Source: Escherichia coli (GTDB taxonomy: Bacteria; Pseudomonadota; Gammaproteobacteria; Enterobacterales; Enterobacteriaceae). From it: 64,000 nucleotides of DNA. Below the pieces are notes generated by a model that made no database searches, had not been told where the DNA came from, and saw only the letters and a program-made list of their open reading frames with translations. A program made the translations under genes and the position numbers. The stretch lies in NCBI RefSeq assembly GCF_013315695.1, contig NZ_CP054353.1. One strand, 5' to 3'. Below are positions 36,104 through 37,432 of this stretch, one piece after another; within the stretch, counting starts at the first letter, position 1; each line of letters begins with the position of its first letter.

Positions 36104-37350
36104 TGAGGTGTACTGGCAATAGCGGACACTACCATTTGTTCTTTTTTTAAGCGGCCATCTGATGATATTTTTCCCTGAAGGCTGCCGGGGAGATATTCCC
36201 CAGACGAGAGTGACGACGCTGACGATTGTAGAAAATCTCAATGTATTCCCGTATTACTGAGATGGCTTCATCCCGGTTATTAAAACGATAGTGGCTCAGG
36301 CTCTCATTTTTCAGCGTTCCCCAGAAGCTTTCCATCGGAGCGTTGTCGTAACAGTTACCTTTACGCGACATTGATGTTTTCAGACCAAACTGCTCCTGTA
36401 TGACCCGGTAATCGTATGCGCAGTACTGTGAACCTCGATCAGAGTGGTGGATTAGCCCGGCAGGTGGGCGCTGGCTCCTGAGCGCCATAAACAGGGCTTT
36501 ACCTGTCAGCTCTTTTGTCATGCGCTCTCCCATGGCGTAGCCGACAATTTCGCACGTATAAACATCTTTGATGCCAGCGAGGTACAACCATCCCTCCTGT
36601 GTGGCAACATACGTCAGGTCCGCCACCCAGACCTGATTTGGTGCTGTAGGAGCGAACGTCTGGTTCAGCAGATTTGGCGCAACTGGCAGATTGTGGTTCG
36701 AGTTCGTAGTCGCTCTGAACTTGCGTTTCTGCTTACAGCGTAGCCTTAGCTCCTTACGAAGACGTGCCAGTCGGTCACGACCAACGATGATGCCATTCTC
36801 TGCCAGCTCCGTCTGGAGCCGCCGGGTTCCATATGTTTCGCGAGTGCGGATATGTGCCACCTTAATCTCCAGTTTTAGCCGCTCATCACTTTGTTTTCTG
36901 TCTGAGGGTTCATGCTGTACCCAGTTGTAATAACCGCTCCTGGATACACCAAATACCTGACACATCGCTTCAATGGGAAATTGTTGTCGCCATTGTTCGA
37001 TTAACGCGTATTTTTCAGCGACTCCTGTGCAATTTAATATATCTCGCTCAAGGCGAGCTTCATTTAACGCCTTACGCAGTTGCAGAATTTCAGATTCCAG
37101 TTCAGCCACCGTGCGGGAACCAGGAGTACCGAGCCCTTTTCTGGCGGCGGTAACCCATTGTCCTAAAGTGCCTTCAGGAAGAGATAATCGGGAAGCGCCT
37201 TCACTGATCGAAAGTTGATTTTCAAGAACCGTTCTGACAGCTTCGGCTTTGAACTCTTTAGAGTAACGTTGGGTTTTTCTGCTCATTATTAGCTCCTTCT
37301 GATGCCATTCTATTTCAGGAAGGAGTGTCCGTTAAACTCAGGCTACCTCA
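36104..37350 (-). mobile_element. IS3-family insertion sequence (IS407-like group) with fused OrfAB
   Basis: Imperfect terminal IRs tgaggtgtactggc... and tgaggtagcctgag...; single 379-aa transposase ORF. Confidence 0.75.
36147..37286 (-). CDS. IS3-family transposase, OrfA-OrfB fusion in one frame
   Basis: N-terminal HTH MSRKTQRYSKEFKAEAVR and C-terminal DDE integrase core in a single ORF. Confidence 0.8.
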   Translation of the reverse strand: MSRKTQRYSKEFKAEAVRTVLENQLSISEGASRLSLPEGTLGQWVTAARKGLGTPGSRTVAELESEILQLRKALNEARLERDILNCTGVAEKYALIEQWRQQFPIEAMCQVFGVSRSGYYNWVQHEPSDRKQSDERLKLEIKVAHIRTRETYGTRRLQTELAENGIIVGRDRLARLRKELRLRCKQKRKFRATTNSNHNLPVAPNLLNQTFAPTAPNQVWVADLTYVATQEGWLYLAGIKDVYTCEIVGYAMGERMTKELTGKALFMALRSQRPPAGLIHHSDRGSQYCAYDYRVIQEQFGLKTSMSRKGNCYDNAPMESFWGTLKNESLSHYRFNNRDEAISVIREYIEIFYNRQRRHSRLGNISPAAFREKYHQMAA

Positions 37351-37432
37351 TTGGTTCCCACTACTTATTTGGTGGACACCACTTTGTCTAATTCGTCAGA
37401 TTCTGACCAGACGGTTCAGGCTGTACGCTTAC
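37351..37432 (+). repeat. 82-bp IS66-family terminal fragment, duplicate of 57683-57764
   Basis: Exact match to the left terminus of the IS66-family element at 55476-57764. Confidence 0.7.

Follow-up and report, generated by a model that had tools for sequence, protein, structure and literature searches.

A resident IS600 copy with transposase frames fused by a 17-bp deletion lies beside an IS66 stump in the leuX island of Escherichia coli

The window analysed here is a 64,000-nucleotide stretch of Escherichia coli DNA (contig NZ_CP054353.1, assembly GCF_013315695.1), which contains a 1,247-bp copy of the insertion sequence (IS) IS600, a member of the IS3 family. Aligned to IS600 of Shigella flexneri, this copy occupies 36104-37350 on the minus strand, with the tip of its right inverted repeat (IRR) at 36104 and that of its left inverted repeat (IRL) at 37350. 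A single fused orfA-orfB frame (36147-37286, minus strand; 379 amino acids plus stop) is identified by the open reading frame (ORF) list, Pfam and NCBIfam, and the IS600 alignment places a deletion junction, with 17 nt missing, at 37032/37033. The IRL tip adjoins an 82-bp stump of an IS66-family element (37351-37432). On the IRR side, the conserved flank of this resident IS600 is a BCCT-family transporter gene (33996-35999, minus strand), whose start codon is located 104 bp from the IRR tip, the tip being upstream. On the IRL side lies lpxM/msbB2 (37467-38411, minus strand), which is transcribed toward IS600 and is the first gene of a plasmid-derived shf-capU-virK-lpxM module.

On its alignment, the element is an isoform of IS600 and not a new IS. 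It differs from the IS600 of a Shigella flexneri plasmid by five substitutions over 1,247 aligned bases and one 17-bp gap (98.0% identity over 1,281 columns, gap included), the canonical Shigella element being 1,264 bp long. By the usual ISfinder convention, a copy this similar counts as an isoform of IS600. A distinct IS in which a single ORF is the norm was considered and rejected, as only these substitutions and the gap separate the element from IS600. Pfam assigns HTH_Tnp_1 (residues 3-75), HTH_21 (134-190) and rve (214-312) to one frame of the 379-aa ORF, and the NCBIfam IS3-family transposase model (transpos_IS3) scores 400 bits, the cut-off being 160. The first-pass annotation of a 379-aa transposase uniting the OrfA HTH region and the OrfB DDE core in one frame is thus confirmed. 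The DDE (rve) catalytic domain follows the HTH domains as in the IS3 family, and the ends are likewise those of the family, with imperfect inverted repeats terminating in 5'-TG...CA-3'. Both tips are TGAGGT..., and the terminal repeats, read directly from the sequence, are alike at 20 of 29 positions; an inverted-repeat finder returned no IS600 ends, which are too divergent for its seeds. The copy therefore shares ends and gene content with IS600, an element of the IS3 group first described in Shigella, whereas it lacks the slippery heptamer, the stimulatory hairpin and a separate OrfA, carries a single 379-aa ORF and shows no target duplication here. RefSeq labels the window-type protein plainly as 'IS3 family transposase' in hundreds of genomes, and other alleles as 'IS3-like element IS600 family transposase, programmed frameshift'. 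The window copy is an ordinary relic of a known IS and represents no new kind of system.

The canonical orfA (100 aa) reads ...TTA AAA AAA GCA..., with a stop 51 nt further on, and our reconstruction gives a canonical OrfAB of 385 aa via a -1 slip on the A run. Just downstream of this run, a 9-bp stem (GCGUAUUUU/AAAAUACGC) is predicted in the canonical RNA. A normal IS600 would produce OrfA and, after a -1 slip on the A7 run aided by the hairpin, the OrfAB transposase. The 17 nt missing from the window allele (AAAAGCAACAGCGTATT on the sense strand) comprise four of the seven A's of the slippery run, reducing it to A3, together with the 5' arm of the downstream hairpin, and the predicted hairpin is gone in the deletion allele. 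Because a loss of 17 nt is equivalent to -1 modulo 3, the orfA and orfB frames join; deletions that fuse the frames must fall inside the orfA/orfB overlap, which is 64 nt in canonical IS600. The fused protein corresponds to native OrfAB with KKSNSVF replaced by N, six residues shorter in total. In our own heptad reading, the replaced residues would belong to the last heptad of a zipper-like repeat (L63-L70-A77-L84-F91). The deletion copy could encode only the 379-aa fusion and no separate OrfA regulator.

The IS3-family arrangement of two ORFs, a programmed -1 frameshift and a downstream structure is kept in other alleles and is absent from the window copy. An Rfam scan of 35500-38500 gave no match at E up to 0.1, hence no curated frameshift element or small RNA in this interval. 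Judged by comparison with its relatives, the fusion arose by mutation in a frameshift-dependent IS: the closest relative is IS600, for which RefSeq annotates a programmed frameshift in other copies, and this settles the check proposed in the first-pass annotation. Its description of a naturally fused transposase that needs no frameshift is right as to the single frame; a designed single-ORF architecture is not what the copy has, since the 17-bp deletion destroyed the frameshift signal. The missing programmed frameshift and the missing target duplication are both secondary losses. In the literature on IS600, frameshifting and OrfAB, we found no description of the fused 17-bp-deletion allele.

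The 82 bp at 37351-37432 are identical, on the same strand, to 57683-57764 (none of 100 shuffles gave a match), where this sequence forms the outer left end of an IS66-family copy of 2,289 bp (55476-57764, minus strand). This reference copy contains tnpA (57292-57693), tnpB (56948-57295) and tnpC (55513-56898), and NCBIfam matches all three proteins. The last bases of the stump, ...CGCTTAC, are the IS66-type tip GTAAGCG in reverse complement, and just 82 bp are left of an element of this tnpA-tnpB-tnpC family. It retains one end only, and RefSeq names no member for its source ('IS66 family transposase' only). The identity reported earlier is therefore exact, and the span 36104-37432 consists of IS600 and the IS66 stump. 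The supposed duplicated terminus is indeed an IS66 end; instead of a local duplication, the sequence comparison indicates the stump of a second, otherwise lost IS66-family copy. The reference copy is in turn defective: a deletion in tnpC (461 versus 504 aa) makes it 133 bp shorter than the intact relative found on plasmid NZ_CP027370.1, and it has no 8-bp target duplication.

The IS66 tip at 37432 is located 34 bp downstream of the lpxM stop codon. Plasmid p510016_80 contains the lpxM-virK-capU-shf module with unrelated sequence to the left of the same boundary, beyond which aaacaactag... follows. Since this plasmid differs up to the boundary, 37432/37433 marks the entry point of the IS66-family element into plasmid-type DNA. 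The IS600 of the window is flanked by tgt and ttg and has no 3-bp target duplication, while other copies have tgg/tgg (Shigella) or gtt/gtt (pE2022-9). As the window flanks differ, the original insertion site is missing on one side or both, and the flanks have been rearranged. Moreover, a sensitive blastn search of 5,426 complete E. coli genomes and 72,556 plasmids gave no match to the reciprocal junction (IS66 body ...gacactttg joined to the IS600 IRR). The missing duplication and the absent reciprocal junction support an entry of IS600 into the IS66 copy 82 bp from its end, with the rest lost later; a single intramolecular IS600 event explains the same junction equally well. The first-pass proposal of insertion into, or recombination with, an IS66 copy followed by deletion agrees with these findings and shares the field with that one-step alternative. 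In the course of events we propose, an IS66-family element would have inserted 34 bp downstream of the plasmid-derived lpxM(msbB2)-virK-capU-shf module, and a later IS-mediated deletion or recombination would have removed everything else of the IS66 copy along with the target duplication of IS600, at the same time joining the block to the promoter region of the BCCT transporter gene. In MS6198, JJ1886 and STO_Bone7, the IS600 IRL tip is joined to the equivalent of window position 41960, inside the second of two ISEc52-like elements of the island, and the whole lpxM module is gone; this arrangement is a second deletion of the same kind.

The distribution of these junctions was counted with exact 40-mers in the 5,426 complete genomes. 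The BCCT|IS600 junction is present in 1,494 genomes, the IS600|IS66 junction in 488 and the whole 3.5-kb locus in 437. The 17-bp deletion junction occurs in 460 genomes, at a median of one copy and a maximum of two (two copies in seven genomes), and 465 of its 468 places are chromosomal. Four of the 72,556 plasmid records contain it, all with the same betT/lpxM/virK locus. Its 40-mer has no match among the GTDB representatives (one genome per species), where E. coli has few representatives. The exact 379-aa protein is very widespread. In all ten distinct neighbourhoods returned for it, the lpxM module or its remains adjoin on one side, and on the other lies the BCCT gene (nine) or hchA-yedVW (one). 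The metagenomes present the same picture: the deletion junction was found on 29 contigs, with the IS66 stump as IRL flank in 21 of 26 readable cases and BCCT as IRR flank in 18 of 21. Among the genomes and metagenome contigs examined, no site otherwise free of IS600 was found to contain the 17-bp allele between newly duplicated target bases. In addition, of the changes in 23 deletion alleles, 19 are non-synonymous and six synonymous, 76.8% non-synonymous being the expectation in the absence of selection, which corresponds to a ratio of non-synonymous to synonymous change (dN/dS) of about 1. Two of the alleles are frameshifted. Distribution and dN/dS together point to a neutral, effectively immobile relic that is inherited with the island.

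The 17 bp coincide with a site used by IS30. Other genomes have IS30 (1,221 bp) inside IS600, between ...AAAAAAAGCAAC and ACAGCGTATTTT..., where AC (sense strand) is the duplicated target. Examples are the plasmids pE2022-9 and p510016_80, the chromosome of MS6198 among others (same BCCT locus) and K-12. An IS30-interrupted IS600 is present somewhere in about 1,100 genomes, and the BCCT flank is among the best 30 matches. The insertion point falls inside the 17 bp, so that the deletion takes 8 nt, the 2-nt target and 7 nt around it. The lesion thus covers the target dinucleotide of an IS30-bearing allele of the same locus (IS30 between ...GCAAC and ACAGCG... in MS6198, K-12 and the plasmids). 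In the KpLE2 island of K-12, where IS30D is located between insM and the split IS911B near fecE, the island and the IS600 copy are the same as in the window, and IS30 occupies the position deleted in the window. In K-12, two-thirds of IS600 on the IRR side are gone, as are the BCCT gene and the lpxM module; the window keeps all three and has no IS30.

Two further lesions map to the same few bases. In STO_Bone7 and JJ1886, the resident copy reads GCAAC-TGTAGATT-TTGCAC, in which the first eight bases of an IS30 end replace eight flank bases. This corresponds to the loss of 1,223 bp (IS30 plus the duplication) with an offset of 8 nt and an ATT microhomology. The allele is found in 762 of the 5,426 genomes, always in the chromosome and including that of the ST131 strain JJ1886. 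IS30-family elements (ISApl1 and IS30) are reported to be lost leaving offset scars (bioRxiv 10.1101/2023.06.07.543989), and IS30 reportedly does not excise precisely from targets other than inverted repeats (PMC9333248). By its sequence, the TGTAGATT allele is a clear scar of IS30 loss, in agreement with the published pattern for ISApl1 in Tn6330 and the IS30 products of Szabo et al., summarised in the same preprint. It has an intact slippery run and a weakened predicted hairpin. The other lesion removes 3 bp (AGC) immediately behind the IS30 target. It occurs in 29 records, each of which has the IS66 stump and the lpxM flank, as in IAI39 (L018 5248-6401), and RefSeq flags this allele as frameshifted. 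Together, this allele and the 17-bp allele (461 records) account for all 488 genomes with the IS66 junction, among which no canonical IS600 sequence was found. On the other haplotype, subtraction leaves about 240 genomes with IS30 or something else at this position.

Since four different lesions affect the same few bases of one resident copy, IS30 involvement in the 17-bp loss can be argued. An IS30 inserted inside those 17 bp would have been lost imprecisely, leaving the gap; we give this about an even chance, a little more than we give a spontaneous deletion. Our best explanation of the whole, to which we assign a probability of about 80%, is a resident IS600 with deletion-fused frames beside an IS66 stump, a neutral relic whose deletion is likely a scar of IS30 loss.

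Two sets of observations weigh against this explanation. The first concerns immobility. Other flanks of the deletion allele occur in L008, L019, L029, L038 and L043-L046 (metagenome contigs and a few genomes), and the dN/dS estimate rests on 25 changes, metagenome sequence included. Contig L038 has the 17-bp allele with an MS6198-type right flank and differs from MS6198 at column 1172. Contig L043 corresponds to the pE2022-9 plasmid site with its GTT duplication and holds the 17-bp allele where pE2022-9 holds IS30; the table of single-nucleotide differences reveals it as a mosaic, which shares a pE2022-9-specific base near the IRR and differs from pE2022-9 at four other sites. L029 and L044-L046 have other flanks without visible duplication. 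In strain B-JRPT-4119, the 17-bp allele is next to lpxM but its IRR flank differs, and a BCCT-IS600::IS30 piece is present separately. Homologous exchange between copies of IS600 is sufficient to explain these extra contexts, and we attribute them to it without claiming proof; for L043 and L038, the sequences make such exchange at least as likely as repeated local origin.

B-JRPT-4119 (L019, NZ_CP106756.1 802000-850000) is rearranged in further respects. Its segment from BCCT to ISEc23 is inverted relative to the window, its IS30 is joined to IS600 on one side and to position 333 of the first ISEc52-like copy on the other, and a glycyl-radical propanediol (grp) cluster adjoins its 17-bp-deleted IS600. 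This inversion and the matching deletion form of K-12 look like IS30-mediated intramolecular events.

The second set concerns the origin of the 17-bp gap, and it equally favours the strongest alternative, in which the 17 bp were deleted spontaneously, by an error of replication or repair, from an uninterrupted IS600, the fragile, nearly palindromic A-run/T-run both attracting IS30 and undergoing deletion. The 17-bp allele retains no IS30 nucleotides and has no microhomology at its junction, as a scar of the type described above would; and no IS30-occupied allele was found on the lpxM-linked haplotype among its 488 genomes. Compared with the published scars, it is a poor fit, as 1,240 bp would have to be lost, each end point lying in the flanks, and such a loss departs from the tight IS-length pattern that has been reported for ISApl1. 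The shared position has a possible explanation of its own: the IS30 target is an imperfect palindrome (7 of 12 positions symmetric), and IS30 prefers nearly palindromic hot spots (PMC9333248). Ascertainment adds to this, because a fused ORF arises only from deletions within the 64-nt overlap, and once it is selected for, overlap with the IS30 site becomes a coincidence of only about one in three. A spontaneous error must nevertheless accommodate IS30 itself, its 8-nt remnant and the 3-bp deletion at the same few bases of the same copy; it lacks the flanking direct repeats usual for slippage deletions, and the canonical allele from which it would start has not been sampled with the IS66 junction. 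We regard a spontaneous deletion as a serious contender that falls somewhat short of even odds.

A stronger form of IS30 involvement would make the 17-bp allele a stereotyped, recurrent product of IS30 loss from a nearly palindromic hot spot inside IS600. The IS30 inverted repeats and the symmetric A-run and T-run flanks could form a hairpin, the base of which would be bridged or cut. If true, this would explain why the 17-bp allele occurs at three IS600 sites that also exist in IS30-occupied form, and one IS would rewire another, from frameshift-regulated to constitutively fused transposase expression. We consider such recurrence unlikely.

Still less probable is that the fused ORF is a working, constitutively made transposase and that the element is still active and the source of the alternative flanks. 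About 21 of the 23 alleles sampled have an intact ORF, all domains are present, both ends are intact, and alternative IRR or IRL partners do exist. Expression also appears feasible, as a promoter-like site (TTAACG-17-TAGAAT; 37307-37335, minus strand) is recognized by consensus match inside the IRL and no terminator-like site was found between lpxM and IS600. Fused-frame OrfAB constructs exist for IS2, IS3 and IS150 as well as IS911, and OrfAB-only constructs of IS911 are more active. In the engineered IS911, an artificial one-base insertion fuses the frames so that, as in the window copy, OrfAB alone can be made (PMC2909936). The IS911 constructs, however, keep an unchanged and active OrfAB sequence, whereas the window protein has seven residues replaced by one, a net loss of six, at the end of the leucine-zipper multimerisation region and gives no population sign of activity. 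The deletion allele stays at one or two copies in its 460 genomes, compared with up to 43 IS600-like places in other genomes, and it is absent from true plasmids. Its new flanks show no new 3-bp duplication, the sole one (GTT, L043) being at a site that also holds IS600::IS30, and dN/dS close to 1 likewise speaks against an active transposase. Because engineered OrfAB-only IS911 is active and no spread is seen here, the shortened fused protein or its expression may well be defective.

Although IS-rich regions are error-prone in short-read assemblies, it is hardly conceivable that the 82-bp identity and the abrupt junctions are artefacts of collapsed or chimeric repeats, as the first-pass annotation had considered, since identical 40-mers span both junctions in the 488 (IS600|IS66) and 1,494 (BCCT|IS600) complete genomes, sequenced by many laboratories and on many platforms, and the junctions also occur in independent metagenome contigs.

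The setting is the mosaic leuX (KpLE2-like) island of the E. coli chromosome, in the well-annotated KpLE2/fec neighbourhood. In the window, the island follows tRNA-Leu(CAA) at 15271-15355. Annotated relatives begin with integrase fragments, an ISEc52-like IS3 element, an ISEc23 (IS66 family) fragment, ISEc45 and an IS100 fragment; next come TetR, DUF2254, the BCCT transporter, IS600, lpxM, virK, capU and a polysaccharide deacetylase, and finally a second ISEc52-like element and fecEDCBARI. The order BCCT-IS-lpxM-virK-capU-shf-IS3-fec is annotated in many chromosomes. K-12 MG1655 is more decayed, with an IS911B fragment, IS30D, a 327-bp IS600 remnant (insM), another IS911B fragment, yjhV and fecE. 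The two ISEc52-like elements of the window (27126-28368 and 41508-42750; IS3 family, called IS911B in K-12 and ISEc52-like in RefSeq) are direct copies, 94.4% identical over 1,245 bp. They bracket a 13-kb block of the ISEc23 fragment, BCCT, IS600 and the lpxM module, which is arranged like a composite transposon or like a substrate for recombinational deletion. In E. coli EcPF7 (L003 890-8542), which has the same IS600 locus, the leuX island also contains an Eco29kI-type restriction-modification pair and the Kiwa anti-phage genes kwaA/kwaB. Elsewhere in the window, self-comparison reveals a tandem repeat at 8003-8298, whose unit measures about 98 bp and whose copies are 91-93% identical. Beside the IS66 element, two adjacent minus-strand ORFs at 58028-58857 (173 and 135 aa) are both rich in paired cysteines (CxxC) and look like paralogues.

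For the IS3 family, the window copy indicates that an intact 'fused' ORF should not be taken for a functional design with a single ORF; in this case, it results from a lesion in the frameshift signal and evolves neutrally. If active, the fused protein would be a natural counterpart of the engineered OrfAB-only constructs. The modest interest of the locus is limited to this natural and apparently inert OrfAB-only allele and to the allele series at one resident IS600. This series, which comprises IS30 inside the element, its 8-nt remnant and the 3-bp and 17-bp deletions, constitutes a natural record of IS30 loss and could serve as a lineage marker for the leuX/KpLE2 island.

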